The position numbers were made by a program, and so were the translations under genes. Positions 22,116 to 52,745 of a DNA stretch of 64,000 nucleotides are shown here, in pieces; the stretch's first letter is position 1; the number at the start of each line of letters is the position of its first letter. The notes under the pieces are model-generated. The model saw nothing but the letters and a program-made list of their open reading frames with translations. It had not been told where the DNA came from and did no database searches. This DNA comes from Candidatus Hydrogenedentota bacterium (GTDB lineage Bacteria; Hydrogenedentota; Hydrogenedentia; Hydrogenedentales; SLHB01), in contig BTWA01000009.1 of NCBI GenBank assembly GCA_045863295.1, forward strand, positions 64,001-128,000. Reading direction: 5' to 3'.

Positions 22116-22482
22116 TGAAAACGTTCCTTCCTGGGGCCGCCTTTCTGGGGGTTGCAGCCTTTTCCGCCTGGGAATAAGGGGGTCATCATGCTTCATTGGG
22201 GGGCAGCTTGAGATAGCCGCGCATTCGCGACTGGGATCATAGTCGATTTGGGACTTGGCTATCAATTCGAGGGGTGAAACCGATGGTATTTGTTGCCTGG
22301 ATCGCACAATGTGTTTTCGGGGAAGGCGGCGTGGATAGAGTTCCAGTATGAGAAAACTGCGAGACACGAAGTTTCGTTACCGCGGTATAGATATTGGCCG
22401 ACGCGACGACTTGATTGCGTTGGCGGAACAGTTTGGCCCATAATCAGGTTTTCATGGGGCCGGGATACGACCATTCGAAATT

Positions 22483-22512
22483 GTTGACAAATGGCTGTCA
22501 ACGGCTTAGTCT
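22483..22512 (+). promoter_or_regulatory. sigma70 promoter with overlapping palindromic operator, upstream of the small-gene array
   Basis: TTGACA (22484-89)-N17-TAGTCT (22507-12). The -35 box forms the left arm of GTTGACA-N6-TGTCAAC. Confidence 0.6.
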
Positions 22513-22526
22513 ATGGCGGAGGAAAC

Positions 22527-22727
22527 GTGGGGTACGAGTCAGGAGTGAACTTACCATCGGGGATCCGGCGTCACTTCAGGAACCTTTCACGGCCCAGGGC
22601 CGTGGCGGTTACGGTTGCGACGCCTGCGGAAATTCAGTTCACCAAGGCCCAGTGGGCGGTCCTCAATGCCTTGTTGTCTTTGGAACAGTCCAAGACCGAT
22701 AAAGTGAATGAGCAAGCCGGTTCATGA
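22527..22727 (+). CDS. Small protein 1 (66 aa) of the tandem leader-motif family
   Basis: GTG 22527 after GGAGG, downstream of the predicted promoter. Contains RHFRNLSRPRAVA, a divergent form of the motif in the next two genes. Confidence 0.55.
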   Translation: MGYESGVNLPSGIRRHFRNLSRPRAVAVTVATPAEIQFTKAQWAVLNALLSLEQSKTDKVNEQAGS

Positions 22728-22819
22728 CCGTGCCGGCCAGTTTGCCGATGCCGCCGGAACGATTCCGCGGAGTCAGGATCGGCGGTCACGTGCTGCCGTA
22801 AGGAGGAGACGGAGGTAAC

Positions 22820-23080
22820 ATGAAGCATCACCGACTGATAACGCGGAAGCCCGTGCAGGGTCAGACTGCGCTTGCCGTGAAATTGGATTTCAAGGTAGGT
22901 TTGAGCGACCTTGCATTTCTCGCTACAGGGTTTGTGGCAAATTTCCTTATTGAGTTTTACGACATCATCGGTGGGTTCCCGACGAACGGGTCTGGCGGCA
23001 CCGGCGGTGACACGGGAGGCGATGGCGGTACCGGTGGCGACACCGGCGGCGACACCGGCGGTGATACGGGTAATGAATAA
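22820..23080 (+). CDS. Small protein 2 (86 aa): leader motif, hydrophobic helix, DIIGG, Gly/Asp/Thr repeat tail
   Basis: GGAGGT RBS; MKHHRLITRKPVQGQTALAVKLD; clear paralogy with 23131-23367. Confidence 0.85.
   Translation: MKHHRLITRKPVQGQTALAVKLDFKVGLSDLAFLATGFVANFLIEFYDIIGGFPTNGSGGTGGDTGGDGGTGGDTGGDTGGDTGNE
22994..23072 (+). repeat. Coding tandem repeat, (GGDT/GGT/GGD)n
   Basis: Degenerate 9-12-nt units such as GGCGGCGACACC, encoding GGTGGDTGGDGGTGGDTGGDTGGDTG. Confidence 0.85.
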
Positions 23081-23130
23081 CGCAGCCCAGTGATCAGCAA
23101 GTTGGCGATTGTACAGCAGGAGACACTGAA

Positions 23131-23367
23131 ATGAAGGCGAGCATGAACCATTGTCGGGCCATTACAAAGTCGCCATCCACGGCTCAAACGGCCTTGGCGC
23201 TAAAGCTCGATGCTTATTTGGCCATTATAACCAATATGTTTACCTCGGGCTTGATCCTTTGGGAAGCAAGCACGGGCGGTTGGTGGGCCGCGTGGCTTGA
23301 CATTATCGGCGGTGAAAACGTCGATGTCGTGTTTGGTCAGAACAACCAAGACACCACGACGGAATAG
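23131..23367 (+). CDS. Small protein 3 (78 aa): leader motif, hydrophobic Trp-rich helix, DIIGG, acidic tail
   Basis: AGGAG RBS (alternative ATG at 23143); MNHCRAITKSPSTAQTALALKLD is 14/23 identical to protein 2. Confidence 0.85.
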   Translation: MKASMNHCRAITKSPSTAQTALALKLDAYLAIITNMFTSGLILWEASTGGWWAAWLDIIGGENVDVVFGQNNQDTTTE

Positions 23368-23401
23368 ACATCCGCGAAGCCGGTCGTTATCCAGTCATTT
23401 T

Positions 23402-23436
23402 GGGCGAACGCATGGACAATGCGTTCGCCCTTTTTT
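23402..23436 (+). terminator. Rho-independent terminator closing the small-gene array
   Basis: Perfect 12-bp stem GGGCGAACGCAT-ggaca-ATGCGTTCGCCC followed by TTTTTT. Confidence 0.9.
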
Positions 23437-23631
23437 GTTTGGGATAGCCTACATTCTTCACCGCGCTTAAAGCGTGTGTGGGACAAGATCTCCTGCACAA
23501 TGATTAGGACTGGGAGAGAGGATATCTGACGAGCAAGCCGCAATTTTGGATGAGCACAATTGGAAAGGGGCTACCCGGTTTTCTGCTGGGATGTGGCTCT
23601 CTTGTTTGGCGATGTACGTGCAATATTCGGG

Positions 23632-25017
23632 CTAATCGCCTGCTTCGCTGGGCGCGTCCAGGCCCAGTTGGTCCATTTTATATTTCAGGATCCGGCGGGT
23701 GGTGTGGAGTATTTCGGCGGCCTTGGATTGCACATAGTCGGATTTTTCCAGCGCCCTTTGAATGAGAAACCGTTCCAAGCGCTGCGTAGCTTCATCCAAG
23801 GATAGCCCCTCAAATTCAGCGAGGGATCCTTCCACCGGCCCTTCGGAAGATTCGGTGGGTGTCAGTATGCCCTGCAGGTTTGTTTTTCTAATTTCCTTTT
23901 CGTGCGGATTCAGTACCAGAATTCGCTCGACCATGTTTTCCAATTCGCGGATGTTTCCGGGCCAGTCATACCCAGTCATCACGGCCATGGCATCGGGTGC
24001 AAACCGATCCACGGTGCTGTTGACGCGGGTGCGGTGTTTGGCGATGAAGAAGGAGACGAGACCGGGGATATCTTCGCGGCGTTTGCGCAGCGGCGGCAAT
24101 TCTATGTGCAGCACGTTGATGCGGTAATACAGGTCTTCGCGAAATGTTCCGGCCTTCACGCAACTCTTCAGTTCGCGGTTTGTGGCGCAGATAAAGCGCA
24201 CGTCGACTTCGATTACCTTTGAGCTGCCCACGGGGTAGATGTGGCCGTTTTGCAGCACGCGCAATAGTTTGGCCTGGGCTTCCAACGGCATTTCGCCAAT
24301 TTCGTCGAGGAAAAGACTTCCGCCATCCGCTACTTGCACCTTGCCCATGCGCTTTTCGATCGCGCCGGTGAAGGCGCCTTTTTCGTGGCCGAACAATTCG
24401 GCTTCGACCAACTGGTCTGGAATCGCACAGCAGGATACGGGCACAAACGCTTTTTGCGAGCGGGGTCCGCCGGAATGAATGGCACGCGCCAGCAGGTCCT
24501 TGCCAGTGCCGCTTTCACCGGTGATCAAAACAGTGCTATCGACTTCCATGGCGCGTTTGGCCATGGCCAATGTCTGCCTTAATGCAACGCTCTCACCGAC
24601 GATGGACTCGAAGCCCGCGGAGCCGGCCTCGCGCAGCACGGTCAATTCCCGGTCGCGCATGTAGTCCGACAAGGTCTTGTCGATGGTGTGTATGAGTTCT
24701 TCGACGTCGAACGGTTTGATGATGTACTCGCGCGCTCCTCGCTTCATGGCTTCGACGGCGTCTGCGACAGATTTGAGAGCGGTGACCACCGCGACCGGGG
24801 GCATCACGCCGCGCCGTTGCATTTCGTCGAGCACTTGAAATCCGCTCATGCCGGCCATCATGAGATCGAGGAGCATCAGATCGACGTGGTTATCCTCAAG
24901 AATCTTAAGTGCCTTGGGACCATCTTCCGCGAGGAGGACCCGGTACTGATCCTGAAGGATCATCCGGTACGATTCCCGGATGCTGAGCTCGTCGTCAACC
25001 GCCAGTATGGTTTTCAT
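23632..25017 (-). CDS. sigma54-dependent response regulator (REC-AAA+-Fis HTH; NtrC/AtoC/PrsR-like)
   Basis: ILAVDDE...LLDLMM, GESGTGKD, GAFTGA, FLDEIGE, FREDLYYR, WPGNIRELEN and a C-terminal HTH. Start 25017 overlaps the upstream gene by 23 nt. Confidence 0.95.
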   Translation of the reverse strand: MKTILAVDDELSIRESYRMILQDQYRVLLAEDGPKALKILEDNHVDLMLLDLMMAGMSGFQVLDEMQRRGVMPPVAVVTALKSVADAVEAMKRGAREYIIKPFDVEELIHTIDKTLSDYMRDRELTVLREAGSAGFESIVGESVALRQTLAMAKRAMEVDSTVLITGESGTGKDLLARAIHSGGPRSQKAFVPVSCCAIPDQLVEAELFGHEKGAFTGAIEKRMGKVQVADGGSLFLDEIGEMPLEAQAKLLRVLQNGHIYPVGSSKVIEVDVRFICATNRELKSCVKAGTFREDLYYRINVLHIELPPLRKRREDIPGLVSFFIAKHRTRVNSTVDRFAPDAMAVMTGYDWPGNIRELENMVERILVLNPHEKEIRKTNLQGILTPTESSEGPVEGSLAEFEGLSLDEATQRLERFLIQRALEKSDYVQSKAAEILHTTRRILKYKMDQLGLDAPSEAGD

Positions 25018-26980
25018 GAACGCCTCGTACGAGCGGTTCCGCGGTTTTTGCAGCGGCCGTAGGGGGGATAGCATCGGACTTTGCGCTTGAGACCAGCGGT
25101 ACCGAGAGGCGGAACCGGCACCCCTGCGGGCCGGGGATATACTCCAGCGTTCCGCCATGCATCACGGCCGTCCGTCGCGCCAGTGTGAGGCCCAGTCCCA
25201 TTCCTTTTTCGCGCGTGCTGAAGAAAGGCAGGAATATCAACGGCACGAATTGTTCCGGGACGCCGGGGCCCGAATCGGTGACGGTGATCTCGATGCGGTT
25301 GTTGGACTCGCCGGAGGCGACCGTGATTACACCGCCTTCGGGCATGGCCTCAATCGCATTTTTTACCAGGTTGTGTATGGCTTGGGCAACGTACACGGGA
25401 TCCATTTCCGCCGGCGTGATGGATGGATCCAGTTGTCGATTCAAACGGATTCCTGCAGCGCCCAGCTTTTCGCGGAACGAGTCCAGCACAGTATTTATGG
25501 TGTCGTTTATGTGCACGCGTTGCAGCGCCATTTTGGGTTGGCGGGCAAAATCAAACAGACTTTCCACCACGCGGTTGATGCGCGCGACTTCTCCCATGAC
25601 TGTTTCGCAGAATTGATCGCGGAAGTCTTGCGATTCATATTTTTTGGGCAACAGTTGCGCAAAGGTATTGATGGCCACGAGGGGATTCTTGATTTCCTGC
25701 GCTACACGTGCGGAAAGGAACTCCCAGAACGGGCTGGTTTCCAGGTCGTCCTGGGCAGTCCGCTCGTCCATGGCGGGTATGGGCGCCATGAGCACGACGG
25801 CTCCGTCGCCTTCCAAGACGGAAACGCTAACGCCCAAGATAGTATTTGTAGCTCTGTCGCGGACGGTATGACGTAGAACCGGTCTGTTTTCTCGGAGTGC
25901 CTGCAAGACGACGTGAGCGAGTTCCGAGCCGAGCCGTTGCACGCTTCGGCCTATATGATCGTTTGCGGATACCTGCAGGAATTTTTCCGCGCTGGCATTC
26001 ATCATCGAGATGGTGTTGTCCGCTCGCACAAAAATCACGCCGCTGGTCAGGCGAGCAATGGCGGTATCCAACTGTGTTTGTTTTTCGGCCACCGCGTCGT
26101 AGGTTTGGGCATTGTCCAGAGCGATGGACGCGCAGCGTGCGAACGAGGTCAGCAGGTCACGTTCTTCCTGGCTATAGGCGCGTCCGGTCGCTTTTTCGCC
26201 TATCAGGATAGCGCCGACGACACGGCCGGCGCGCAGCAGAGGCACGCCAAACCGCGCCCCCAAAAGCCGCATGTGTTTGGCGGCAGGCGCCTGAGCAGGC
26301 AAGAGATTGCGATCGATCAGGCATGGGTTCTCTTCAAAGCACCGCATGAGCCCCGCGGCGAACCCGAGCCGAAGCGAATCGGTCAGCGCGGGTGAAAGAC
26401 CGACACCCACCGCGACTCGTGCTTCGCCGCCCTGTTCCAGCAGAATTGCCGTGCGAACCGGGTCGAAGATATCTGAGACGGCATCCTGTAGCGTTTGCAG
26501 CAATCGTTGCGGGTCTTGCAACATGCCGGCGGCGCGACCGAGCCAGCGCAACGCCGTTTGATGCTGGGACAAGTGCGCCGCAGGGGTAATGTCCGCAGGC
26601 GCTGGCGGCGCAATTATTTCGACAGTGCGTTCCAACGGCCTTGCGCGATCCATTGCGGCATGCAGATCGGCGCAATTGAACGGTTTGGGCAACGCTGCCG
26701 AGGCCCCAGCGAGAAGATAGGACGCGAGCGTTTCGGAGTCGCTGTAGTTGGACAAGACGATGACCGGCGTGTCGGGCGAGACACCGCGCAATTGGCGCAA
26801 GGCGTCACGCCCCTGGGTGCGCCAATCGTCGAGTATGACTACGTCGGCATTGACGGCGATCATTCGACGGATAGCCTGTTCGACATTGGGTTCAAAGAGC
26901 GCGACAGATGCATCCGGCAGTGCGGCTGCCAGGGATTCGCGCAAGGCTTTGTCTTCCGCAACGATGAGTACCAGATTCAT
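24995..26980 (-). CDS. REC-GAF-PAS-HisKA-HATPase protein lacking the phosphoacceptor His (pseudokinase)
   Basis: H-box reads RVAQEIKNPL. N/G1/F/G2 boxes are intact (NLVKNA, DSGPGV, PFFST, GMGLGL). ATGA overlap with the upstream kinase. Confidence 0.88.
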   Translation of the reverse strand: MNLVLIVAEDKALRESLAAALPDASVALFEPNVEQAIRRMIAVNADVVILDDWRTQGRDALRQLRGVSPDTPVIVLSNYSDSETLASYLLAGASAALPKPFNCADLHAAMDRARPLERTVEIIAPPAPADITPAAHLSQHQTALRWLGRAAGMLQDPQRLLQTLQDAVSDIFDPVRTAILLEQGGEARVAVGVGLSPALTDSLRLGFAAGLMRCFEENPCLIDRNLLPAQAPAAKHMRLLGARFGVPLLRAGRVVGAILIGEKATGRAYSQEERDLLTSFARCASIALDNAQTYDAVAEKQTQLDTAIARLTSGVIFVRADNTISMMNASAEKFLQVSANDHIGRSVQRLGSELAHVVLQALRENRPVLRHTVRDRATNTILGVSVSVLEGDGAVVLMAPIPAMDERTAQDDLETSPFWEFLSARVAQEIKNPLVAINTFAQLLPKKYESQDFRDQFCETVMGEVARINRVVESLFDFARQPKMALQRVHINDTINTVLDSFREKLGAAGIRLNRQLDPSITPAEMDPVYVAQAIHNLVKNAIEAMPEGGVITVASGESNNRIEITVTDSGPGVPEQFVPLIFLPFFSTREKGMGLGLTLARRTAVMHGGTLEYIPGPQGCRFRLSVPLVSSAKSDAIPPTAAAKTAEPLVRGVHENHTGG

Positions 26981-29532
26981 GGCTGGCTACTCACGGAAGC
27001 GTTTGCGTTGTTGGGGTCCCATCCTTGCCGCATTTTGGGTGGTGGATCGAGAGGGAGGAGGATAACGAACGAGGCACCTCCCGACGGGTTATTTTCCACG
27101 TAAATTTGTCCGGCGTGTTCGCTGATGATTCCGTGCACGACGGATAGGCCGAGGCCGCTGCCCCGGTCCTTTGTGGTGAAGAACGGAGTGAAAATGCGAT
27201 CCAGGGCGTCGGGGGCGATCCCCGTGCCGGTGTCGGACACAGTGACTTTGACGCACTCTCGAACCGGCTTTGGCCCGTGGCCGTTGCTGCTGTAGAGAGA
27301 CGCCTGGTCGCGTGCAGCGGTAATGGTCAAAGTTCCCCTTCCGTGGTCCTTCATGGCATCGATGGCGTTGAGTACTAAATTCAAGAAAACCTGATGCAAC
27401 TGCTGTTCATCGCCGTAAATGCATGTGCAATCCGTGGCCAGCTTGGTTTCGACGCCAATGATGCCTTTACGGATCTGATTCTCCAGCAGAATGAGGACCT
27501 CCTCGATGATAGCATGAAGATTCTGAGGCGCAAAATTCGCAGGCTTGGGCCTCGCGAAGTGGAGCAGGCGCGTGACGATGGAATCGATTCTCTCCACTTC
27601 GGTTGGAACCACATCGCTGAACGTGTTTCGAAAATCGGGATCGTTGTAACGGTCCATGAGAAGTTGTGCGAAGGTCTTGATGGATACGAGTGGGTTTTTG
27701 ATTTCATGCGCCATGCCGGCGGCGAGCGTGCCAATAGAGGAGAGCCGGTGGGCGCGCTGCATGCTTTGTTCCAGGCGTTTCAAATGCGTGAGGTCGTATA
27801 ACAACGCCATCGCGCCCGTGACTTCCTCGTCCACGGTAGTGAGACACGAGGAGGACATGGCCACGGAAATGCGGTCGCCGTTGGGCCCGGTGATGACGGT
27901 TTCATAGTCGTGAACACTTTGTCGCGTAGTGAGGGTTTGTCTTATGACACTGGCCACTTCGGGCGTAAGCACATCGACGTGTGCGCCGATCTTAATCGGA
28001 CCGAGCAATTCGACGGCGCCTTGATTTACCGTAGTGACTTCGCCGCTGGTGTTTACGGCGACGACGCCGCCGCGCATGTTACTGAGGATGCGGGCGCGAT
28101 GCAGGTTGGCTTCCTCTAGCGCGCGGTAGAGGCGTGCATTTTCGATGGCCGCGGCCAGAGGCCCCGCGAGTGCCTGAAATGCCAGGACGTCTTCCGCTGT
28201 AAAGATGTCCTTTGACGTTTTTTGACTGAGGGTCATAATACCCACCAGCGTTGATTTTTGAATTAGCGGCACCGCCATGTAGGCGTCCAACTCCGCGAGG
28301 AGTTCGGCGATTCGCACGCGGTCGGCGGAGGGTTTTCCGTGAATCAATTGTTCCAGCACGAGGGGGGTCGGGTTTAGGTGCAGGTAGTCGAGCAGCATGC
28401 CGAACTGGTGGAGGCGTCCACCCATTTCGCGCCTATCGCTCGAGTACTCAGTAATCAGGATATCCTTGTCCTTGGGATCGACCAAATGGATTCGGATGGT
28501 CTTCACGCCGAGGGTCTGTTGGATGTTCGTGCAGACGGATTCCATGAGTTCGTCAATCTGCACAGTTTGCGAAGCCTTTTCGCTGACGCGTGCGAGCAAT
28601 TGCTGGGCGTCGTAGTGACGCTTGAGAATCACGCGTTTGGCGATCAGTTGCAGGCGTTCCTTCAGGGGTTCCAGAAAGACGGCGATCACGATGGCGGCGA
28701 GCAGGGCGGTGATGATATCGGCGTCGCCGCGGGCGATGCTCAATCCATAATGGGCCAACACAAACGCGCCCACGAAGATAAGTACGACAAACCCCGTGGT
28801 GACCGTGTATACCGCGGTGGCGGACAGGATTACCCACACGTCCATCAAGTGGTACCGGATCATGGCGTAGGCGAAGATGGCCATGGTGGGCAGCACGAAA
28901 ACAGGTCCATAGGGTTCGAAGAAGCGGATTCCGAGGAATACCAAAAGCATGTTCGTAATGAAACCGAGGATGGCGACGACAAACACGCCCAGGATTACGT
29001 GTTGAATCTGGCGGCGTTGAATGCCGGACGAAACCCGCAGTTTCCGGAACAGGTTGATGTAGATCAGAATTAGCGCCAGTACGCCCAGCGGAAAGAATCC
29101 GAAATTGAAGACCGGTCCGTACACCACGTTGGGATAGCCCGTGGATTTTGCCTCGACGGTGACAAAATAGTAGGGATCGGGCAGGAAGCAAAGTACAATG
29201 AGGGCCAGCCCCACGACGTAAAAGAAGATGACGGCGGAGCGCGAGCCTTGGAACCGTCCTGTGGGGGAGTAGCAAACAAAGTTATAAAACGTGCCGGGGA
29301 ACAGACACGCAATAATGAATGTGGATCGCATCCAGAAGCGCGCATCTTCGACGTTGGTGCAATGGATAATGGCGAAAACGCCGAGGACCCACAACATCAG
29401 ATTCGTGGACAGGGCAGCGAATGCGATGTGATTGACACGGCGGTGGTTGTGGCCAAGGACGATTGCCGTGAGCGCAAGGCAAGACAGGGCGGAGAGGATT
29501 TGGAAAAATCCTGTGACGTCAATCCACCACAT
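26977..29532 (-). CDS. Membrane sensor histidine kinase (HisKA_7TM-like multi-TM, GAF, PAS, HisKA, HATPase)
   Basis: About 9 N-terminal TM segments; GAF ending AIENARLY; GMAHEIKNPL; NLVLNA, DTGTGI, PFFTTK and GSGLGL. ATG overlaps the ketosynthase stop (TGATG). Confidence 0.93.
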   Translation of the reverse strand: MWWIDVTGFFQILSALSCLALTAIVLGHNHRRVNHIAFAALSTNLMLWVLGVFAIIHCTNVEDARFWMRSTFIIACLFPGTFYNFVCYSPTGRFQGSRSAVIFFYVVGLALIVLCFLPDPYYFVTVEAKSTGYPNVVYGPVFNFGFFPLGVLALILIYINLFRKLRVSSGIQRRQIQHVILGVFVVAILGFITNMLLVFLGIRFFEPYGPVFVLPTMAIFAYAMIRYHLMDVWVILSATAVYTVTTGFVVLIFVGAFVLAHYGLSIARGDADIITALLAAIVIAVFLEPLKERLQLIAKRVILKRHYDAQQLLARVSEKASQTVQIDELMESVCTNIQQTLGVKTIRIHLVDPKDKDILITEYSSDRREMGGRLHQFGMLLDYLHLNPTPLVLEQLIHGKPSADRVRIAELLAELDAYMAVPLIQKSTLVGIMTLSQKTSKDIFTAEDVLAFQALAGPLAAAIENARLYRALEEANLHRARILSNMRGGVVAVNTSGEVTTVNQGAVELLGPIKIGAHVDVLTPEVASVIRQTLTTRQSVHDYETVITGPNGDRISVAMSSSCLTTVDEEVTGAMALLYDLTHLKRLEQSMQRAHRLSSIGTLAAGMAHEIKNPLVSIKTFAQLLMDRYNDPDFRNTFSDVVPTEVERIDSIVTRLLHFARPKPANFAPQNLHAIIEEVLILLENQIRKGIIGVETKLATDCTCIYGDEQQLHQVFLNLVLNAIDAMKDHGRGTLTITAARDQASLYSSNGHGPKPVRECVKVTVSDTGTGIAPDALDRIFTPFFTTKDRGSGLGLSVVHGIISEHAGQIYVENNPSGGASFVILLPLDPPPKMRQGWDPNNANASVSSQP

Positions 29533-30779
29533 CAATTACATTTCCTGAGCACCAAAGCGCCGTGCGTGCCTCCGAAGCTCATGGCCGTTACGATGGCTGT
29601 CCGCACGTCATTATAGCGCGCCTTTTTGGGAACGTAGTCGAGGTCGCACTCAGGGTCGGGATCCTGGAGGTTGATGTTGGGCGCGACGATACCTTCCTGA
29701 ATGGCCAGCAGGGCGGCGCCTATGCTGTAGAGGCCCCCCGCGGAATAGGGCTGTCCGGTCATGGACTTTGTGGCCGAGAGGGGGATCCGGTAGGCCTGTT
29801 TTGCCAGCGCTTTTTTGTAGGCGGCGGTTTCGGATCGATCGTACATGGGCAGGGAGACCCCGTGGCAAAAGGCGGCATCGATGTCTTCCGGCGATGTGCC
29901 GGCATCTTGAATGGCCGTGCTCATGGCGCGTGCCAGGGCCGCGCCTTCCCGTTCCAGGGTTAGCAAGTTGTTCGCCTCGGCGGAGGAGCCGTATCCGCCC
30001 ACTTCGGCCAGGATGGTGGCGCCTCGTTCCCTGGCGTGTCCGAGCCTTTCCAATACCAGGGCGGCCGAGCCTTCGCTCAAGACGATGCCATCGCTGTTTC
30101 GATCGAAAGGCCGCATTGCCTTTTCGGGAGCGTCGTTCATTTTGGAGAGGATGCCCAGTGCGCAGGAAGCGGCAATGGTCAGTTCTGTTAGCGGCGCTTC
30201 GGTAGCGCCGACGACCGCCATGTCGGCACGTCCGGAGCGGATTTGGGCAACGCCCCATGAGACTACATCGAGCCCAGTGGAACAACCGCTGGCCAACGTC
30301 ACCGCAGGTCCTCGCAGGCCGTGCGTGACACTGATGTATGCTGTTGCGCCGTGGCCTGACGATGCAGACGTAGTGAGTTTGTCCAGATTGGTCCAACCGC
30401 CGGTTTCATAGGATGTTCGATGGCGCAGATAGTGTTCGTCTGGTGAGCCCACGCTGGTTCCGAAGGCCGTGGCCATGCGTTCGGGATCGTACGTGCCGGG
30501 TACATATGAGGAATCGTCCAATGCCAGGCGGGCCGAGCCGGCGGCCAAGTGGACGTGGCGATACCACCGCCGGACATCGGCTTTTTTCATGAATTCAGAA
30601 GGGTCGTAATCGCGGACTTCCCCCGCAATTTTGCATGGAAAAGGGGTTGGATCGAAACGTTCGATACGGCGCACGCCCGAGCGTCCTTCGCGCAACGAAG
30701 ACCAAAAGGCCTTTCGCCCGACACCGTTGCAGGCGACAATCCCGAACCCTGTGACTACTATTGGTTCTCTGATTATCAT
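29532..30779 (-). CDS. Beta-ketoacyl-ACP synthase II (FabF/KS-alpha)-like protein with atypical active site
   Basis: IVVTGFG, LRGP, SGCSTGLD (Cys), RPFD..SDG.VLSEG, CHG, KSMTGQ (canonical KSMTGH) and SFGG. Confidence 0.88.
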   Translation of the reverse strand: MIIREPIVVTGFGIVACNGVGRKAFWSSLREGRSGVRRIERFDPTPFPCKIAGEVRDYDPSEFMKKADVRRWYRHVHLAAGSARLALDDSSYVPGTYDPERMATAFGTSVGSPDEHYLRHRTSYETGGWTNLDKLTTSASSGHGATAYISVTHGLRGPAVTLASGCSTGLDVVSWGVAQIRSGRADMAVVGATEAPLTELTIAASCALGILSKMNDAPEKAMRPFDRNSDGIVLSEGSAALVLERLGHARERGATILAEVGGYGSSAEANNLLTLEREGAALARAMSTAIQDAGTSPEDIDAAFCHGVSLPMYDRSETAAYKKALAKQAYRIPLSATKSMTGQPYSAGGLYSIGAALLAIQEGIVAPNINLQDPDPECDLDYVPKKARYNDVRTAIVTAMSFGGTHGALVLRKCN

Positions 30780-30897
30780 GATGAGTTGCCGTTCTATGCG
30801 CGTCGCGGACGGCGCATGCCGGGTTGCGCCTGTGTAGCGCATCCGCTAAATTCGCCACGATTCCCCCGGCCGGGCACACTACGCGCGGCCGATATTT

Positions 30898-32601
30898 TTA
30901 AGCCTGACTCGCGACGCCGCCGCGCGTGGCATCCAGCGGTTCGAAAGCTACGCGGCGCGGCGCAATGCAGACTGCTTCGTTAAATTGCATGACGAATTCA
31001 GCAATTCCGGAGGTGTCGCCTTCGAGGAGTTCGCGCTGGATGCGATCGCCGAACAGGCTTTCGCCTCCGTCATAGCCGACGAGGCGCGCAATACGCAGGA
31101 GCGGTTCCGGCGTGGATGCATGAACGCCAATCTCTTCGATATCTTTGATTAGTTCTTCACGTTCGGCGAGTGCCTGGGCCAAGCTGAGTTTTCCGATTTG
31201 ATAGGGCAACGCGCGCCAGCGATCTTGTGGAAGCGGAAACCGGCGGCGGCGCTTGATCATGTGATGCAAGTAGGCCGACTCATCCACACCGAATCCAAAC
31301 CGTTTCGGATCGCGGAACCAAAGAGAGAAAGGCGTCAAGCCGGGAAAAATGACCGGCGCGGCACTGGGCTTGGTGCGTTGGAGAATACGAAGGGTTTCAC
31401 AACGCGTGTGGTAGTCGTCCCACGGGCAGGGATACGAAAACGAAGCCACCGTGAAGAGCCCTGCGTTGCGGCTTGCGCGCAGTACGGTCTCGGCCTCGGT
31501 GACGGTAAAGCCAGTGCCGTAAAACTGATCGAGGAGGCGTTGACTGCCAGTGCCAATCTCAAAGGCCAGCGACATGCACCCGGACTGGCGCAAGGAATGC
31601 ATTGCGGCTGGCACCATGCGCCTTACATTGCTTGTACGCGTGTAGCGGATGCGCATGCCCCGCCGGATCAATTCGTTGGCCACGGCGGCCACGTGCGACG
31701 CGGGTGCGTGAGAGCCCGTGAATGCGAACGCGCGCGCGCCGAACAGGGTGCCTAGACGCCACATTTCGTGACACACGGCCGTCACCGGTTTCATGCTGAG
31801 CGAGCGGTCGGGGCTGATGCAGGGGTCCCCATTGCCCGGATGTGGATTCCCACGGGAATCCTCCACTTCAAACACGCGCAGCTTTTCGCCGTGGCGAAGC
31901 GCTGGATAGATGTCAATTTCGTAGGCGAGATTGGGAAGGCTGGACAACGTTGCGCCTGGCTGGCGCGGTGTACGAGCGAGAGTACGTCCACGCCGGACGA
32001 CCAAATTTGAAACACCACCCCACGAATCGGGCTGTTCGATTTTCTCGGCAATGGCGACCAAAGTCATTTCCGGGTCGCCGATGCACAGGCAGTCAAAGGA
32101 ATCAAACGCCAGCATCACGGACTCGCTGTGTTGGCTGGCCGCTTCGCCGAAACCGACGATGCGCAGTTTGGGGCGAAGTCCTCGCAGGCGGGAGGCAATG
32201 CGTGAGGCGCAAGGCAAATCTTCCACCGAGCGCAGGTGAAACGCAGCGAAATGGAGCCCACGCACATTTGCAAGCGCAACGGCAATGGAGTCGCAGAGTT
32301 CGTTTTGCCGTTGGCGAAAGGCTTTGTCTGCGGAGCGGATTTGCCAGAGTGTGTGCAGGGTCTCAAGGGGGTTAATGGAATCGTCGCCGACTACTCGATC
32401 CGCAATGCGCCTCGCCGTGTCACTCAACCCACCGGAGACCAGGCTTTCGACCACTTCTACGGAGCCATAGTCGTAGATGCGGGTTGTGTGTCCTGCATCC
32501 AGCAGCGATCCGGCGGTTGCCGCCAGGACTCTGTCCGGCATAAGCGCCTGTGGATCAAAGGGATATCCAGGGCAGTACACGAGGGCGCTGCAGGTTTTCA
32601 T
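30898..32601 (-). CDS. B12-binding/radical-SAM-like protein lacking the CxxxCxxC motif
   Basis: AAGGAG RBS. Class-B-methylase-like layout (AGSLLDAGHTTRIYD, FDCLCIGDPE, SGCMSLAFEIGTGSQRLLD), but SRGNPHPGNGDPC stands where SRGCxxxCxFC is expected. Confidence 0.8.
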   Translation of the reverse strand: MKTCSALVYCPGYPFDPQALMPDRVLAATAGSLLDAGHTTRIYDYGSVEVVESLVSGGLSDTARRIADRVVGDDSINPLETLHTLWQIRSADKAFRQRQNELCDSIAVALANVRGLHFAAFHLRSVEDLPCASRIASRLRGLRPKLRIVGFGEAASQHSESVMLAFDSFDCLCIGDPEMTLVAIAEKIEQPDSWGGVSNLVVRRGRTLARTPRQPGATLSSLPNLAYEIDIYPALRHGEKLRVFEVEDSRGNPHPGNGDPCISPDRSLSMKPVTAVCHEMWRLGTLFGARAFAFTGSHAPASHVAAVANELIRRGMRIRYTRTSNVRRMVPAAMHSLRQSGCMSLAFEIGTGSQRLLDQFYGTGFTVTEAETVLRASRNAGLFTVASFSYPCPWDDYHTRCETLRILQRTKPSAAPVIFPGLTPFSLWFRDPKRFGFGVDESAYLHHMIKRRRRFPLPQDRWRALPYQIGKLSLAQALAEREELIKDIEEIGVHASTPEPLLRIARLVGYDGGESLFGDRIQRELLEGDTSGIAEFVMQFNEAVCIAPRRVAFEPLDATRGGVASQA

Positions 32602-33054
32602 AGGCGCTCCTTGCCTTCAGTATCGAGTGCGACCCCACGGACCCATGTCGGCGAAGGTACCACAAGATGTAGAAATCGCCATCACTCTCCGAACGCACAA
32701 TACATTATATGGCGTGGCGATTCTAGCAAAGCCACCATATTTATGCAACTGGAAATTTACGCCCCCATATCTTGAGCGGCATGAAGGCCGATTCGCAGTT
32801 TTCAGGGTAAGTGGCTGGCAGTAAATGGGTTGGTAGAGGCGCGGTTTTTCGTCGACTTCCTTGGGCATGGTAAGGAGGGCAGACACGGTGTTCGATGGTG
32901 CAGTTTTTCGCGGCATAGGTAATGTTTAAATTACAAAAGCAAACGTAAAATAAAAATTACAAAATATTGTTCATGTCCTCCTGTTGCCGCTGACGACGCA
33001 TAGTGGTCGCCATCTAAGATACCATGGTCTTTGATGCTACCATTTTGATAGAGA

Positions 33055-33085
33055 ACTCTCCATCGCTATCGCGGCGATGGAGAGT
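33055..33085. terminator. Hairpin downstream of the dehydrogenase gene, possible terminator
   Basis: 12-bp stem ACTCTCCATCGC-tatcgcg-GCGATGGAGAGT; only a weak U-tract. Confidence 0.45.
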
Positions 33086-33138
33086 AAAATATGCAGGGAG
33101 GAGTGCCTAAGCGCAATTGTAACAAAGTGAGATAAAGA

Positions 33139-34185
33139 TTACTTATTCCAATCTTGATATGCGTCGTAAATCTGTTGTCGCATGGTAGAAATGAAGGCTT
33201 CGGTCACGGGCTTGTCCGAGGCGACCGTGTACCACAATCCAACTTCATTGACGTACCAAGCCAACTTACGCAGTCCTTCGGCTACTTGGTCCCACGTGAG
33301 GTCCATGGCTTCCGGGCGGATATCCACGCCTGCGCGCTGGATCAGGCGAAGCATCTTGTCGGGTTCGTTTTCCTGCAGTGCCGACCCAATGTAGATACCG
33401 AGGCATACGGGTAGCCCGTGGATGAACTTCTTGTGGGTCATGTATTCGAGGGTGTAGAAGAGGAAGTGGTCGATACCCTCGATATGTCGGGGATTCCAGC
33501 CCGCGTTGTGAAATGCGGCGCCTCCCCATCGAAGCCCGGCGGCGAGGGCGCGGATGCCGGTTTCGTTCAGCGCGTGGATGTCGTCCAATTTGTCGACCAC
33601 ACTGTCCAGAACGGCTTTGGACTCGGCGCACAGGCCGGGGTCATAAGGCCATTGCTTTTCTGTTTTTCCCCGGTCATGGGCGAGTTTCCAGTCGTAGATG
33701 GCGGTGTGATAGCAGAAGACATCGCAGACGCCGCTTCGGTTGAGCAGTTTCGGGCCGTTTTGAATCACGTCGAAATCAATGTAGACGGCCTCGGGCACGG
33801 TGTAGGTGATGTAGCGCACCTTGCTGCCAAAGCGCATGCCGGCCCGGTGGCCGAAGGCGGCGTTGGTCGCCAGTGAGGTGGGCACTTGAAACAATGGTTT
33901 CCGGTCATGCCACGCGAAGATCTTGGCCACGTCGAGTGCCTGTCCGCCACCGAGGCCGATGACGGAATTGAATTTGGGCAGGCTGGCCATGTCCTTGACG
34001 ATGTCATCGTATTCCAGCGTTTTGACGAAATACGGCCCGGCGATGTTCTTGTCAAAGTGATGTTTGAATATGGGCCACAAATCTTCCATGGTGACCACGA
34101 GATAAGGTTGGTGCACGAAGTTCGGCAGTTCGCCGATGAGGTTGCGTCCGAAAATGGTGTTGAAGAAACTGGCTTGTGAGAACAT
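33139..34185 (-). CDS. Glycerol-1-phosphate dehydrogenase/glycerol dehydrogenase-like (DHQS/Fe-ADH superfamily)
   Basis: IGLGGGQALDVAK, VPTSLA, P.AVYIDFDVI, RSGVCD, EGIDH and HGLPVCLG. Confidence 0.8.
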   Translation of the reverse strand: MFSQASFFNTIFGRNLIGELPNFVHQPYLVVTMEDLWPIFKHHFDKNIAGPYFVKTLEYDDIVKDMASLPKFNSVIGLGGGQALDVAKIFAWHDRKPLFQVPTSLATNAAFGHRAGMRFGSKVRYITYTVPEAVYIDFDVIQNGPKLLNRSGVCDVFCYHTAIYDWKLAHDRGKTEKQWPYDPGLCAESKAVLDSVVDKLDDIHALNETGIRALAAGLRWGGAAFHNAGWNPRHIEGIDHFLFYTLEYMTHKKFIHGLPVCLGIYIGSALQENEPDKMLRLIQRAGVDIRPEAMDLTWDQVAEGLRKLAWYVNEVGLWYTVASDKPVTEAFISTMRQQIYDAYQDWNK

Positions 34186-35043: not shown

Positions 35044-36765
35044 ATGGATCGCAGGACGTTTCTCTCACTTGCAGGAGTTGCCGGTATGAGTACTCTCCTA
35101 GGGGGCGCTTCTTCCGCTCAGGAACGTTCAGGCGCACCCATCAACGAGATGTTGTTGCGTGGGCGGAATCAGAACCGGTCCACGGTGGTGGCGCGGCATG
35201 GGATGGTTTGCACGAGCCAGCCGCTGGCAAGTCTTGCGGGAATTGATACTTTGCGAGCTGGCGGGTCGGCCGTTGATGCGGCCATTGCGGCCAACGCGAT
35301 GCTGGGTCTGACCGAACCGATGAGTTGCGGACTCGGGGGCGACTTGTTTGCGATTGTCTGGTGGGAGAAGGAGAAGAAGCTGTATGGCCTGAACGCGAGC
35401 GGCCGATCGCCGTATGCGTGGAGTCTTGAGGCCGCGAAGTCGTTAAACTTGGAATCGATCCCTTCGCAGAGTCCGTTGGCATGGAGCGTGCCGGGATGCG
35501 CGAGCGGCTGGGCCGCACTTGCGGAGAAGTTTGGCGCGATCCCGTTCAAGGACGTGCTTCAACCCGCGATTACGACGGCGCGCGATGGATTTCCCGTATC
35601 CCCAATCATTGCGCGCGGCTGGCCGTTTCCGACCAAGTTCGAGAATTTGGGCAAGACCTATGCGCCGGGTGGCCAACATCCGCGCTTTGGCGATATTTTT
35701 CAAAACCCGGCGCTGGCCAACACGCTGGAGATACTCGCACGGGACGGCGCGCAGGCCTATTACCAGGGCGAGATAGCGGAGAAGCTGGTGCGCTTCTCGG
35801 AGAGCGTGGGCGGCAAGTTTGCCTTGAAGGATTTTACGGATCACACGGCCACGTGGGTGGAACCGGTAAGCACTTCGTATCGTGGTTACGATGTATGGGA
35901 GATTCCGCCCAACGGCCAGGGCATTGCGGTGCTTCAAATCCTGAACTTGTTGGAGCACTTTGATATTGGGTCGCTGACGCCCAATTCCGCGGAGCATTTG
36001 CATCTGTTTATCGAAGCCAAGAAGCTGGCTTACGAAGATCGGGCGATATACTACGCGGATCCGGAGAAGGCCGATGTGCCGGTGGATTGGCTCATTTCGA
36101 AGGATTACGGCAAGGAACGGGTTCAACTCATCAATCCCAACAAGGCCAGCATGTCGGTGAAACCGGGAGCAATGGATGGGTCGACCGATACGATCTATCT
36201 GGCCACGGCCGATCGACACGGCAACATGGTTTCGTTTATTCAAAGCATCTACAGCGGTTGGGGATCGCATTTTGCGCCGGAGGACTTGGGATTCGCGATA
36301 CAGAATCGCGGTTCGGCCTTTACGCTGAATGCCGATCATCGCAACCGTCTGGAACCTCACAAGCGTCCCTTCCACACCATCATTCCCGGTTTTCTTACGC
36401 GCGAAGGGAAGGCGGTGATGCCCTTTGGCGTAATGGGCGGCGATTTTCAGCCGCAGGGCCATAGCCAGGTGCTGATGAATATGATCGACTTTGGGTACTC
36501 GGTGCAGCAGGCCGGCGATCAACCGCGCATTGAGCACGCGGGCAGCAGCGACCCCGACGGTTCGCGCATGGAAGGTGCCGGCATTGTAGCGTGTGAACGT
36601 CACATCGGCGACGATGTGAAAGAGAAACTTGCAGCCCTGGGACATACGCTCAAGCCCGGTTTCCAGGAATTCGGCGGGTATCAGGCAGTATGGCGCGAAG
36701 ATGATCCGTTGCGCTATTTCGGCGGTTCGGATCCCCGCAAGGATGGCTGCGCGATTGGCTACTGA
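35044..36765 (+). CDS. ggt: Gamma-glutamyltransferase with twin-arginine (Tat) signal
   Basis: MDRRTFL Tat motif; GG.AVDAAIA, CGLGGDLF, IPPNGQG, nucleophile DT-IYL..AD..GNMVS, KRPFHTIIP, GVMGG..QPQGH and SDPRKDG. Confidence 0.95.
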   Translation: MDRRTFLSLAGVAGMSTLLGGASSAQERSGAPINEMLLRGRNQNRSTVVARHGMVCTSQPLASLAGIDTLRAGGSAVDAAIAANAMLGLTEPMSCGLGGDLFAIVWWEKEKKLYGLNASGRSPYAWSLEAAKSLNLESIPSQSPLAWSVPGCASGWAALAEKFGAIPFKDVLQPAITTARDGFPVSPIIARGWPFPTKFENLGKTYAPGGQHPRFGDIFQNPALANTLEILARDGAQAYYQGEIAEKLVRFSESVGGKFALKDFTDHTATWVEPVSTSYRGYDVWEIPPNGQGIAVLQILNLLEHFDIGSLTPNSAEHLHLFIEAKKLAYEDRAIYYADPEKADVPVDWLISKDYGKERVQLINPNKASMSVKPGAMDGSTDTIYLATADRHGNMVSFIQSIYSGWGSHFAPEDLGFAIQNRGSAFTLNADHRNRLEPHKRPFHTIIPGFLTREGKAVMPFGVMGGDFQPQGHSQVLMNMIDFGYSVQQAGDQPRIEHAGSSDPDGSRMEGAGIVACERHIGDDVKEKLAALGHTLKPGFQEFGGYQAVWREDDPLRYFGGSDPRKDGCAIGY

Positions 36766-37621
36766 TTCGCCGTCCGAGCCGAAACCTCCGCGTGTTTCCA
36801 TTGTCATACCCTCCTGGGATGGTCATCGCGACGGGTGCGTGCCCCGGTTGTTGGCCAGCATCGAGGAGCAGACGTTTCGGGACTACGAGGTCATTGTCAT
36901 CCAGGGCGTGTCGCCGCAGGGCCGTGCCATTAACCAAGGGGCGGCCAGGGCGCGCGGTGAGATACTCGTGATTCTCGACGACGACAGCCGGCTTGCGGAT
37001 GAACACGTGATTGAACGGCTTGTCCATTGCCTCGATGCCGATGGGCGGGTGGGCATGGCCGGAGCGAGCATCATTCTGCCGCCGGATGTTTCTTCCTTTC
37101 AGCGCCGTGCCGCTCGGCAATTTCCGCGATTTAATACCCCCATCGTACGCGAAGTGACCGACAGCGATTTGGCGTGCCACGGCTGCTGCGCGTTTCCCAA
37201 GAGCGTGTTTGAATCCGTCGGCCGCGAGCGGGAAGACATAGTTCGTGGCCTCGATCCCGATTTGCGTGTGCGGCTGCGCGCGGCGGGCTATCGCGTCGTG
37301 CTAGTGCCCCATGCGGCGATATACCATCCCATGCCGGACGGGTGGGGCAAGTTGATTCGCATCTTTTTCCGGAACGGCTATGGGTCGGCCTATGCCTACA
37401 AGTTTCATGCGGACAGCGTCTACGAGACGCACGAAGCGCTGCATGAATCCAGTTTTCGCCCGACTACCGGGTTTGTTTTCCGGTTGTTGCGTTATCCGTT
37501 TCGTCTCGCCAAGGCCGTGCTGCAGGGCCGCCTGATCCGGTTCGTGGCGTATCTTGCCTATGCGACCGGTTACCTCTGGGGATTGGCGGTTGCCAGGAAG
37601 GCTGTTTCGCCGACTGTATGA
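36743..37621 (+). CDS. Glycosyltransferase family 2
   Basis: VSIVIP, AINQGA..ARGEILVILDDDS and D.DLRVRL..AGY. Start uncertain (ATG 36743 or TTG 36755); either overlaps the ggt end. Confidence 0.85.
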   Translation: MAARLATDSPSEPKPPRVSIVIPSWDGHRDGCVPRLLASIEEQTFRDYEVIVIQGVSPQGRAINQGAARARGEILVILDDDSRLADEHVIERLVHCLDADGRVGMAGASIILPPDVSSFQRRAARQFPRFNTPIVREVTDSDLACHGCCAFPKSVFESVGREREDIVRGLDPDLRVRLRAAGYRVVLVPHAAIYHPMPDGWGKLIRIFFRNGYGSAYAYKFHADSVYETHEALHESSFRPTTGFVFRLLRYPFRLAKAVLQGRLIRFVAYLAYATGYLWGLAVARKAVSPTV

Positions 37622-49206: not shown

Positions 49207-50193
49207 ATGGCCGACATTCTCAGCCAAGACGAAGTCGATATGCTGTTGAATGCAGTCGCGCGGGGCGATTTGGAAGTCGAAGAACCGGCTTTCGACCGCG
49301 CCGATACCCGCGACATGATGCACTACGACTTCAGGCGGCCGGAGCGGGTATCCAAGGAGCAACTCAAGGGGTTACAAAGTCTTTTCGAGGCGTTCGCGCG
49401 TGAATTGAGCATCGCGATGCCTCCGTTTCTTCGGACGGTTGTGCGTGTGGATCTTGTTTCCATAGACCAACTTACATATGACGAGTTTATTCTTTCCATA
49501 TCGCGCCCGACGTCAATGTCGGTCATCAACATGTCTCCCTTGGAAGGTAATGCGGTCATTGAGCTTAGCCCCACGATTGTGTTTCCTATCGTGGATCGGG
49601 TTTTAGGGGGGAAGGGCGCGACTTTATCCAGGCCGCGCGAGCTGACAGAAATAGAGAATCGTATCGTCCACCGCATTATGCTTATGATTCTTGACAGCTT
49701 GAAGCGCTCCTGGGAGCAGTTGATCGAGTTTCGTCTTTCGGTATCGCACCAGGAAAGCGATCCGCTGATTGTGCAAATCGTGGCCGGTAGCGAAATGGTC
49801 ATTCTGGTGGCGTACGAGATTCATATTGGCGACACGTCCGGCACGATGAACATGTGCATTCCCTTGCTGGTATTGAATCCGGTATTGGATCAGATTTCGC
49901 AACAAACTCGATTCATTCGCCGAATGAGCACGGAGATGGCGGAGCGCACGCGCAGCCAGATATTCCGGATAATGCGCAAGGCGCTGGTGCCGGTGGATGC
50001 CATTCTTGGCCGTGTAAATTTGCCATTGCACGAAGTGCTGCAATTGGAAGTGGGTGACGTAATTTTGCTGGATTCCGACGTGAAGTCGCCGGTTCCGGTG
50101 GAGGTGGGCGGTGTGCACCGATTTCGTGCACAGCCCGGCCGCCGCGGTGAGCAGAGTGCCGTGCAACTTGTGCAATTGATTGTGGACGATTGA
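49207..50193 (+). CDS. fliM: Flagellar motor switch protein FliM
   Basis: CheY-binding ILSQDEVDMLL, YDFRRPERVSKEQL, QLTYDEF, RELTEIE and a C-terminal SpoA domain. Confidence 0.96.
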   Translation: MADILSQDEVDMLLNAVARGDLEVEEPAFDRADTRDMMHYDFRRPERVSKEQLKGLQSLFEAFARELSIAMPPFLRTVVRVDLVSIDQLTYDEFILSISRPTSMSVINMSPLEGNAVIELSPTIVFPIVDRVLGGKGATLSRPRELTEIENRIVHRIMLMILDSLKRSWEQLIEFRLSVSHQESDPLIVQIVAGSEMVILVAYEIHIGDTSGTMNMCIPLLVLNPVLDQISQQTRFIRRMSTEMAERTRSQIFRIMRKALVPVDAILGRVNLPLHEVLQLEVGDVILLDSDVKSPVPVEVGGVHRFRAQPGRRGEQSAVQLVQLIVDD

Positions 50194-50251
50194 ACGTTCG
50201 CGGGACTGCCGTAGTTGAAGAGTCCGTTGATATCAGGAGGTTCAGGCAACC

Positions 50252-50638
50252 GTGGCCGATAAAGAATCCGAGTCGTTGGGTCAAGAAGAAGTAGGTGAAA
50301 TCTTGAGCGCGCTGGAAGGGATGCAGGACGAAGAGCCTCAGCCTAAACCCACGCCCAAGAAGGAGGCCAAGTCTCCTGTCGGCAACATAGACATGGTGCT
50401 GGACATCAAGCTGACGGCCACGGCACGGCTTGGGCGTGTAGAGATGCCCATTGGCGAAGTGTTGACCTTGGGACCGGGTTCCATCATTGAAGTGGGTCAC
50501 TCGGTGGATGAACCGGTTGAATTGATGGTCAATGACAAGCTGATAGCCCGAGGCGACGTTGTGGTCGTGGACGAAAAATTTGGTTTGCGCATCACCGAGA
50601 TCGTGAGCCCAGCGGAGCGTATAGAAAGCCTTGGCTAA
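50252..50638 (+). CDS. fliN: Flagellar motor switch protein FliN
   Basis: NIDMVLDI.L...LG, L.PGSIIE, EPVELMVN.KLIARGDVVVVDEKFGLRITEI; AGGAGG upstream. Confidence 0.95.
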   Translation: MADKESESLGQEEVGEILSALEGMQDEEPQPKPTPKKEAKSPVGNIDMVLDIKLTATARLGRVEMPIGEVLTLGPGSIIEVGHSVDEPVELMVNDKLIARGDVVVVDEKFGLRITEIVSPAERIESLG

Positions 50639-51437: not shown

Positions 51438-51439
51438 CC

Positions 51440-52744: not shown

Positions 52745-52745
52745 C

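Follow-up and report, generated by a model that had tools for sequence, protein, structure and literature searches.

Few bacterial signalling devices have been studied as thoroughly as two-component systems. In the lipid-signal circuits CqsA/CqsS–LuxO and RpfF/RpfC, the gene of an enzyme lies beside that of a kinase with multiple transmembrane (TM) segments, and DesK/DesR offers a parallel for a lipid-modification operon that carries its own regulator. Among atypical partners of such systems, DivL, with Tyr in place of His, controls CckA, and NifL binds NifA. In the literature that was searched, no two-component system was found with a fatty-acid condensing enzyme as the partner of its kinase, nor was the cassette reported here described. 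The locus in question is a five-gene operon, g1 to g5, on a 64,000-nt stretch of DNA (hereafter the window) from a Candidatus Hydrogenedentota bacterium (GCA_045863295.1, contig BTWA01000009.1, positions 64,001–128,000 of the forward strand), an uncultured organism that DNA run labels place in sludge and bioreactor communities. The recurrent core of the system is a ketosynthase (KS) without the malonyl-site threonines together with a sensor kinase, often accompanied by a kinase paralogue that lacks the phospho-acceptor His; the five-gene operon of the Hydrogenedentota is one variant of this wider KS–kinase cassette. We tentatively read the KS as the module that provides the input to a membrane histidine kinase in a dedicated signalling cassette, a reading that we regard as possible rather than probable. 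The five open reading frames (ORFs) occupy 23632–32601 of the window, all on the minus strand and all uninterrupted, and are listed below with their upstream region.

30898–32601, minus strand: g1, 567 aa, a protein with the predicted fold of class-B (B12-binding) radical S-adenosylmethionine (SAM) enzymes, without CxxxCxxC
29532–30779 from Met22 (the ATG of the long ORF lies at 30842), minus strand: g2, a FabF-like KS with Cys-His-Gln
26977–29532, minus strand: g3, a sensor histidine kinase with HisKA_7TM, GAF, PAS, HisKA and HATPase_c domains
24995–26980, minus strand: g4, a paralogue of g3 with REC, GAF, PAS, dimerization/phosphotransfer (DHp) and catalytic ATP-binding (CA) domains and Gln at the phospho-acceptor position
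23632–25017, minus strand: g5, a sigma54-dependent response regulator with REC, an AAA+ domain with GAFTGA and a Fis-type helix-turn-helix (HTH)
32659–32775, minus strand: predicted promoter and operator of the operon, from sequence reading, an alignment of 20 upstream regions and position weight matrix (PWM) scans

The original prediction, made from the DNA alone, had described five same-strand genes in this order, and the ORFs, domains and motifs were confirmed. The junctions were also as described: the stop of g2 overlaps the ATG of g3 (TGATG), the stop of g3 overlaps the start of g4 (ATGA), g4 and g5 overlap by 23 nt, and the Met22 start of g2 leaves a gap of 118 nt to g1. For g2 and g5, the shorter starts are favoured by orthologue alignments. 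Three of the five proteins lack a canonical catalytic residue and are nonetheless full-length, as had been claimed; the reading frames are open and the substitutions are present. That the window encodes no acyl carrier protein (ACP) likewise proved correct, with no PP-binding match on the window's contig and the genome's three matches lying on contigs C8, C3 and C38. A search of 22300–33200 against Rfam gave no match at E up to 0.1.

For conservation of the locus, a pattern scan with one genome per species was used, which gave 41 loci (L001–L041) encoding g1 relatives, all from metagenome-assembled genomes (MAGs) of Hydrogenedentota or MAGs with other labels. The complete series g1-g2-g3-g4-g5 could be followed on one strand through the regulator in 18 of the 41, and a contig end interrupts it in 10 more, where the order agrees as far as the DNA goes; the gene order therefore recurs wherever related loci have sufficient downstream DNA. 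Of the rest, L017 includes g1 but no more than the first 66 KS residues, four loci (L038–L041) have a g5 orthologue (54–58% identity) immediately after the g1 relative, and eight contain a distant g1 relative alone. Such an arrangement is far beyond chance. Pairwise Nei–Gojobori dN/dS values, calculated for unsaturated pairs with dS below 0.6, were 0.07–0.21 for g1, 0.00–0.04 for the KS, 0.025–0.096 for the g3 kinase and 0.019 for g4; the overall range of 0.00–0.21 indicates purifying selection and is not near 1, as would be expected of decay. Parts of the operon were also recovered on contigs of four sludge and activated-sludge DNA runs, each from a different study, with two single-base differences from the window and zero insertions or deletions. 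The substitutions themselves recur: the Gln of the KS was seen in every one of the 21 orthologues whose motif could be located, and that of g4 in 20 of 20 rows; for g1, CxxxCxxC is kept in 3 of 42 rows. Because the order is conserved, the substitutions recur, dN/dS is low and independent metagenome copies exist, the altered residues represent neither decay nor sequencing error, and the clade-wide pattern shows that they are not peculiar to one strain. The five genes are thus a conserved unit under purifying selection. To this extent the interpretation put forward in the original prediction was upheld; an obligate partnership of g1 and the KS was not supported.

All pattern-scan loci that could be matched by coordinates fall in the GTDB order of the window, and the exact five-gene form is shown for the Hydrogenedentota only. 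Seven of the loci (L004, L006, L008, L010, L011, L016 and L018) come from MAGs whose titles give Nitrospiraceae, Nitrospirales, FCB group or an uncultured bacterium. Five of these (L004, L008, L010, L016 and L018) match by coordinates genomes in the window's own GTDB family or order, and the deposited labels look wrong.

For characterization of g2, Pfam and NCBIfam models and structural homologues were used. Both KS domains of the thiolase fold were detected (PF00109, N-terminal, 153 bits; PF02801, C-terminal, 79 bits), and g2 has the same fold and length as Thermus thermophilus FabF (1j3n, E 2e-85), with a score of 354.9 bits on the FabF model TIGR03150 that is below the equivalog cut-off of 493.75. 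Aligned to 1j3n, g2 retains the Cys, the first His (CHGVS vs AHGTS) and the Lys; the second His is replaced by Gln (KSMTGQ vs KSMIGH), HGVSL stands in place of HGTST, and the gating loop reads SFGGTH in place of GFGGHN. In FabF numbering, taken from PMC7138838, His340 is Gln in the cassette KS and the gating, or oxyanion-hole, Phe is retained. All 20 Hydrogenedentota rows of the KS alignment A2 (the window and 19 loci) carry this Gln, and across 28 aligned sequences the Cys, first His, Lys and Phe are invariant or nearly so. Both HGTxT threonines are lost in all kinase-linked KS relatives, and the second His is lost in the Hydrogenedentota clade. The genome has a housekeeping acpP–fabF pair with a canonical triad on contig C3, and g2 lies beside neither acpP nor fab genes. 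By score, triad and context, the KS is not FabF.

According to PMC9006962, transacylation needs the Cys and the oxyanion hole, and the two histidines catalyse decarboxylative condensation with malonyl-ACP; PMC7138838 describes the reference KS mechanism with a backbone oxyanion hole (Cys and Phe400). Judged by its residues, the KS retains everything required for acyl-enzyme formation. Because the transacylation residues are kept and the condensation residues are altered, we infer that the acyl-enzyme would still be formed and that the FabF condensation would not be run. The term "degenerate", which the original prediction had applied to both biosynthetic proteins, is too strong for the KS. It could be argued that g1 and the KS are both non-catalytic pseudoenzymes, acting only as ligand-binding or scaffold subunits of a kinase complex. 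The radical-SAM-like protein is repeatedly found without its iron–sulfur motif while still under selection, the KS has lost one His and both malonyl-site threonines, and the kinase paralogue has also lost its His. However, near-invariance of the KS Cys, first His, Lys and Phe is hard to explain without Cys chemistry, and the radical-SAM-like gene persists with no kinase nearby; on balance we find this explanation improbable.

To place the KS in a wider family, an exhaustive HMMER search was carried out, in which the orthologues formed one cluster at 50% identity and the proteins ranked after them, FabF-like, were at most 45% identical. Ten of these outgroup proteins, one labelled Thermodesulfobacteriota, also have Gln at the second His. 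Metagenomes were then scanned with eight outgroup KS as seeds, using the pattern [ST]S[IV]KSM[ILT]GQ and a second, general pattern; at least 600 stretches matched, and 80 loci were kept, from contigs that carry no taxonomy. Adjacency was counted where at least 600 nt followed the KS. Of 56 KS lacking HGTxT, 46 have a kinase ORF directly adjacent, 6 have one within 6 kb and 4 have none. The split is similar for those with Gln (33 adjacent, 4 within 6 kb and 3 without, n = 40) and those with His (13, 2 and 1, respectively, n = 16), whereas none of the 7 canonical HGTxT KS has a kinase, either adjacent or within 6 kb. Among the adjacent kinases, 27 align from the seven-transmembrane (7TM) N-terminus of g3.

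Several architectures were seen repeatedly in these loci. In the first (A), the KS is followed by two 7TM kinases, a REC-kinase and a further kinase; in the second (B), by a kinase, an AAA-like protein, a sigma54 regulator and a REC protein; in the third (C), a REC-kinase, a sigma54 regulator and a radical-SAM-like protein precede the KS and its 7TM kinase. Of the 41 metagenome loci with enough DNA, 6 have a g1 relative immediately upstream. The REC-kinase of architecture A reads ARIADEIKNPL, with Asp for His, in 6 of 6 cases (L104, L106, L113, L123, L127 and L174); a further g4-like fragment, in L124, has the His. Both these metagenome contexts and the neighbours of g1 in the Atlas (below) indicate that related cassettes reach beyond the Hydrogenedentota.

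The kinase g3 matches the Pfam models HisKA_7TM, GAF, PAS, HisKA and HATPase_c. Hydropathy in a 19-residue window gives about 7 clear segments, or 8 peaks of which two overlap (range 7–9). Its H-box, AHEIKNPL, has the His in 21 of 21 rows (AHEIKNP). The paralogue g4 matches REC, GAF, PAS, HisKA and HATPase_c, and its H-box reads AQEIKNPL, the Gln standing at the phospho-acceptor position throughout the orthologues (AQEIKNP). Its ATP-binding boxes N, G1, F and G2 are conserved across orthologues, and the Glu and Asn of the H-E-x-x-N motif are retained; against g3, 32 of 62 DHp residues are identical (52%), compared with 28% overall. Given what is established for the HisKA phosphatase motif, retention of Glu and Asn fits a role as phosphatase, competitor or heterodimer partner. 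The regulator g5 is of NtrC type, with REC, Sigma54_activat (Walker motifs and GAFTGA) and HTH_8; it reaches no named equivalog cut-off, and rpoN is present in the window's genome. A scan of the window for sigma54 promoters (TGGCAC-N5-TTGCW, up to 2 mismatches) gave 25 matches, compared with 36.6 expected and none of them upstream of g1, and the 41 loci showed no conserved sigma54 site either before g1 or after g5.

Because the start–stop overlap of the KS and kinase genes is kept across distant lineages, it is suggested that the two proteins act together. In the scheme that we tentatively favour, the KS would load an acyl chain from an acyl-thioester and carry out a second half-reaction unlike that of FabF. 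Most likely, it would make a hydrophobic product that is read by the 7TM or GAF part of the kinase; alternatively, the kinase may read the acylation state of the KS itself. On the former route, the cassette would produce a lipid-like signal. Phosphorylation of g5 by g3 would then switch on sigma54 promoters elsewhere in the genome. Without its His, g4 should be unable to autophosphorylate and would most likely serve as a REC-controlled phosphatase or competitor for g5, or as the heterodimer partner of g3, a proposal that draws on its retained ATP-binding domain, E-x-x-N phosphatase motif and kinase-like docking helix.

Several points weigh against this scheme. No other lipid gene was found in the cassette, as with the ACP, and a search of the operon's surroundings, both in the window and in related loci, yielded no sigma54 promoter or target of g5. 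His-type KS keep both histidines and yet 13 of 16 adjoin a kinase, so that the Gln is not needed for coupling. The N-terminal acidic pair of the g4 REC domain varies among orthologues, which makes control by phosphorylation uncertain, and survival of the radical-SAM-like gene without KS or kinases leaves its place in the circuit uncertain. A bolder form of the proposal, in which the KS is a covalent acyl-enzyme (thioester) sensor that tells the membrane kinase directly about acyl-ACP or lipid synthesis in the cell, and hence a new class of kinase input, the His-less paralogue (with Gln or Asp for the His) is a built-in phosphatase or brake, and the whole is widespread in uncultured bacteria, seems to us unlikely.

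As a special, intercellular case of the KS acting as kinase input, the operon might be a circuit of quorum-sensing type, comparable to CqsA/CqsS/LuxO or RpfF/RpfC, with the KS as autoinducer synthase for a diffusible, lipid-like signal, the 7TM kinase as receptor and g5 in the role of LuxO. A synthase gene beside a multi-TM kinase with sigma54 output mirrors CqsA/CqsS–LuxO; g5 scores 354.9 bits on the LuxO model, below its cut-off of 800, the catalytic Cys and His of the KS are kept, and the sludge and bioreactor habitat given by the run labels is dense. On the other hand, no export, ACP or tailoring genes are present, the His-less kinase and the radical-SAM relic have no counterpart in such circuits, and autoinducer synthases are, to our knowledge, not usually coupled in translation to their receptors. 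We therefore consider a circuit of this type distinctly unlikely.

Assignment of g1 required structural comparison. No Pfam family was matched at E up to 0.01, including PF04055 (Radical_SAM) and PF02310 (B12-binding), and NCBIfam gave weak matches to B12-binding radical-SAM models (E about 1e-11) that are far under their cut-offs. An AlphaFold2 model from 25 family members (mean predicted local distance difference test, pLDDT, 89.5) was searched with Foldseek, and the best match was TsrM (6wte, E 2e-18, template modelling score 0.61), followed by MgmA, CysS, OxsB, AprD4 and TokK (E range 2e-18 to 1e-11). The match spans both the Rossmann-like domain and the barrel (partial TIM). Where CxxxCxxC is expected, the cluster loop of g1 is EDSRGNPHPGNGDPC. 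In the family profile alignment its EDSRG stretch falls on the ETNRGCPYSCSFC loop of TokK and CysS, and the cysteines missing from g1 are therefore the cluster cysteines. As far as the model goes, g1 is a radical-SAM enzyme by fold only, not by motif or Pfam.

The three rows that keep CxxxCxxC belong to the syntenic loci L012, L013 and L014, and the motif also occurs in four metagenome proteins (P0026, P0030, P0034 and P0035). In a quick maximum-likelihood tree of the g1 family, in which L012 is mislabelled for this character owing to trimming, the starred branches force at least 3 changes. Because of these changes and the low dN/dS, the motif must have been lost repeatedly while the gene was under selection; residues such as GSQ and P..DD.HT..E are invariant in the family. 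Across a phylum set of 135 genomes, 86 of them high-quality, g1 relatives were found in 125 (81 of the 86), and KS orthologues (E at most 1e-100) in 81 (52 of the 86), with none in two families (0 of 23 and 0 of 10 genomes). Where a g1 relative stands alone, the genome encodes no g5 orthologue, and its best-matching sigma54 activator is 40–46% identical; the genus of L039–L041, with genomes about 80–90% complete, has g1 and g5 and neither a KS nor a g4 orthologue. Because g1 is present in 125 genomes compared with 81 for the KS, and occurs also without KS, kinases and regulator, it is inferred to be older and more independent than any other member, separable and not an obligate subunit of the KS. 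Complex prediction for the radical-SAM-like protein and the KS (alignments A1 and A2) gave a score of 0.00, which decides neither for nor against a complex. In the proposed circuit, g1 would be an older, separable gene that no longer needs radical chemistry.

Beyond the 43 known sequences, a profile search with A1 found no relatives; it used a shared-short-word method, so absence outside the phylum is not established. In the Atlas, the nearest cluster to g1 has 553 members, mostly Radical_SAM plus B12-binding, with Omnitrophota the commonest phylum, and is possibly g1's own cluster. For one genus, the g1 orthologue lies in a frame that remains open far upstream (L012, ORF of 1310 aa; G130:C106, 1313 aa), which could be a fusion or merely an unbroken frame. 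In lineages without KS (L028, L034, L035 and L041), the g1 relative is near ceramidase-like and 3-keto-disaccharide-hydrolase-like genes.

Upstream of g1, a sigma70-type promoter is predicted in the window, with hexamers assigned by eye and by regular expression: a −35 element TTGCAT at 32748–32743 and an extended −10 element TGCTAGAAT at 32728–32720, with a 17-nt spacer. Alignment of 20 upstream regions showed the same type of promoter (CTTGCA, 17 nt, TGnTAnnAT) within three or four direct boxes. The boxes of the window, with the core ATATnGTG / CnnAnATATnGTG, are spaced by 30, 32 and 40 nt:

32775–32761, minus strand: first box
32745–32731, minus strand: second box
32713–32699, minus strand: third box, weak
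32673–32659, minus strand: fourth box

A PWM of the box gave 89 matches in 8,145 nt upstream of g1, compared with 57 in the remaining 1.14 Mb of locus DNA, and among 18 held-out loci that were not in the training set 16 had at least one box and 10 had two or more. Neighbouring boxes gave 54 spacings, of which 42 were 30–32 nt, 5 were 41–42 nt, 5 were 60–62 nt and 2 were 72 nt; the spacings are whole helical turns. The boxes are conserved across the order and precede g1 also in lineages without KS, kinases and g5. For this reason g5 was rejected as the box binder, the boxes persisting where the best sigma54 activator is only 40–46% identical. LexA and MraZ were also considered and were dropped because the 30-nt spacing is a misfit, and none of the 35 flanking proteins scanned by the top box sites matched a LexA or RecA family. 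On this evidence the operon would be read from a sigma70-type promoter within phased boxes of a different regulator.

In the window's own genome the motif, often as the palindrome ACAATATATTGT, occurs at about 58 further, mostly intergenic places (e.g. C4:140983–141078, C46:5801–5890, C20:80638–80655 and C4:15196–15213), and 19 of 25 multi-box clusters are not inside a long ORF. Neighbouring genes encode a Mur ligase, FtsK, an amidase, an O-antigen-ligase-like protein, a flagellar rod protein, MotA/ExbB, glycosyltransferases and several signalling proteins; tentatively, the motif may mark the wider regulon of some global regulator, with a leaning towards envelope, division and motility genes. 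No conserved sigma54 site was found next to the strongest box sites of the genome. Beside the strongest of the other box arrays is a 149-aa ORF, which resembles a non-coding shadow frame and was set aside.

These results bear on a further explanation, in which the operon modifies lipids and carries its own regulator, as DesK/DesR does; the KS, ancestrally with the B12-radical-SAM protein, would alter membrane fatty acids and so be the output, the 7TM kinase would sense the membrane, and the regulator would tune the expression of these or other lipid genes. No protein of the set is more constrained than the KS (dN/dS 0.00–0.04), which keeps its nucleophile and general base, the syntenic orthologues of L012–L014 still have CxxxCxxC, the PDB titles of the class-B relatives CysS and TokK describe action on pantetheine-bound substrates, and a multi-TM sensor domain would suit membrane sensing. 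Against this, neither the window nor the related loci have a sigma54 promoter before g1; the operon promoter is of sigma70 type, and its boxes occur also where the regulator is absent. Moreover, the radical-SAM motif was lost at least 3 times with the gene retained, and the KS–kinase overlap, which recurs without the radical-SAM gene, points to a stoichiometric partnership rather than to a regulator and its target. We judge a lipid-modification operon somewhat unlikely and retain, tentatively, the KS as kinase input.

Other genes around the operon were also examined. Two paralogous small ORFs of 86 and 78 aa (22820–23080 and 23131–23367, plus strand) are convergent to it, with good Shine–Dalgarno sites and a strong terminator at 23402–23430; the first ends in a GGDTGGD repeat. 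No relatives of them were found in the loci, the genome or the protein collection, and they were rejected as cassette members, as were an upstream Fe-ADH-like gene and a 133-aa gene, which are not conserved beside the cassette. A GT2 glycosyltransferase gene (36629–37621) recurs near the cassette in 5 related loci. At a distance of about 17 kb (49207–54176) there are flagellar genes, which encode FliM, a FliA-like sigma factor and a FliK-like protein. In 11 related loci (L002:9344–10246, L010:18989–19942 and 9 more), a PfkB-family sugar kinase gene that the window does not have follows the regulator.

New here are the separability of the radical-SAM relic from the KS, the phased box array before g1, and the KS plus kinase as a widespread core. 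The pairing is translationally coupled and under strong selection, and is found in 81 of 135 genomes of one phylum and in many environmental bacteria. If the KS does feed lipid-metabolic information into the kinase, it would constitute a new link between membrane or fatty-acid status and sigma54 control. The cassette also provides a natural set of three conserved proteins without a textbook residue, namely a cluster-less radical-SAM protein, a Cys-His-Gln KS and a His-less kinase, and it can be tested in vitro for organisms that are unculturable.

Compared with known systems, the resemblance to PrsK/PrsR noted in the original prediction holds at the domain level, a HisKA_7TM N-terminus and an NtrC-type sigma54 regulator being common to g3/g5. 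It does not extend further: g3 scores 109.5 bits on PrsK (TIGR02916, cut-off 300) and g5 355 bits on PrsR (TIGR02915, cut-off 502.6), exosortase homologues lie on contigs C14 and C6 and not on C9, and PrsK/PrsR has no KS, His-less kinase or radical-SAM gene. The pair g3/g5 is not PrsK/PrsR. With DivL and NifL the cassette shares a selected His-less DHp and ATP-binding paralogue beside a true kinase and a sigma54 activator. The match to the NifL model is weak (61 bits, cut-off 242), and g4 differs in having its own N-terminal REC, GAF and PAS domains, with Gln here and Asp in the other variant. The class-B radical-SAM enzymes TsrM, MgmA, CysS, OxsB, AprD4 and TokK have in common with g1 the predicted fold and the position of the cluster loop, whereas g1 is without CxxxCxxC, PF04055 and PF02310. 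Like CqsA/CqsS–LuxO, the cassette has an enzyme gene beside a multi-TM kinase and a LuxO-type sigma54 regulator as output (LuxO score 354.9, cut-off 800); unlike it, the putative synthase is a KS, another enzyme family than CqsA, and an extra His-less kinase is present in a system without a LuxU-type phosphotransfer protein. Finally, g2 shares fold, length, Cys, first His, Lys and gating Phe with FabF/KAS II (1j3n and Escherichia coli FabF), from which it is set apart by its Gln, HGVSL and SFGGTH motifs, its sub-cut-off score and the sensor kinase gene that overlaps it.

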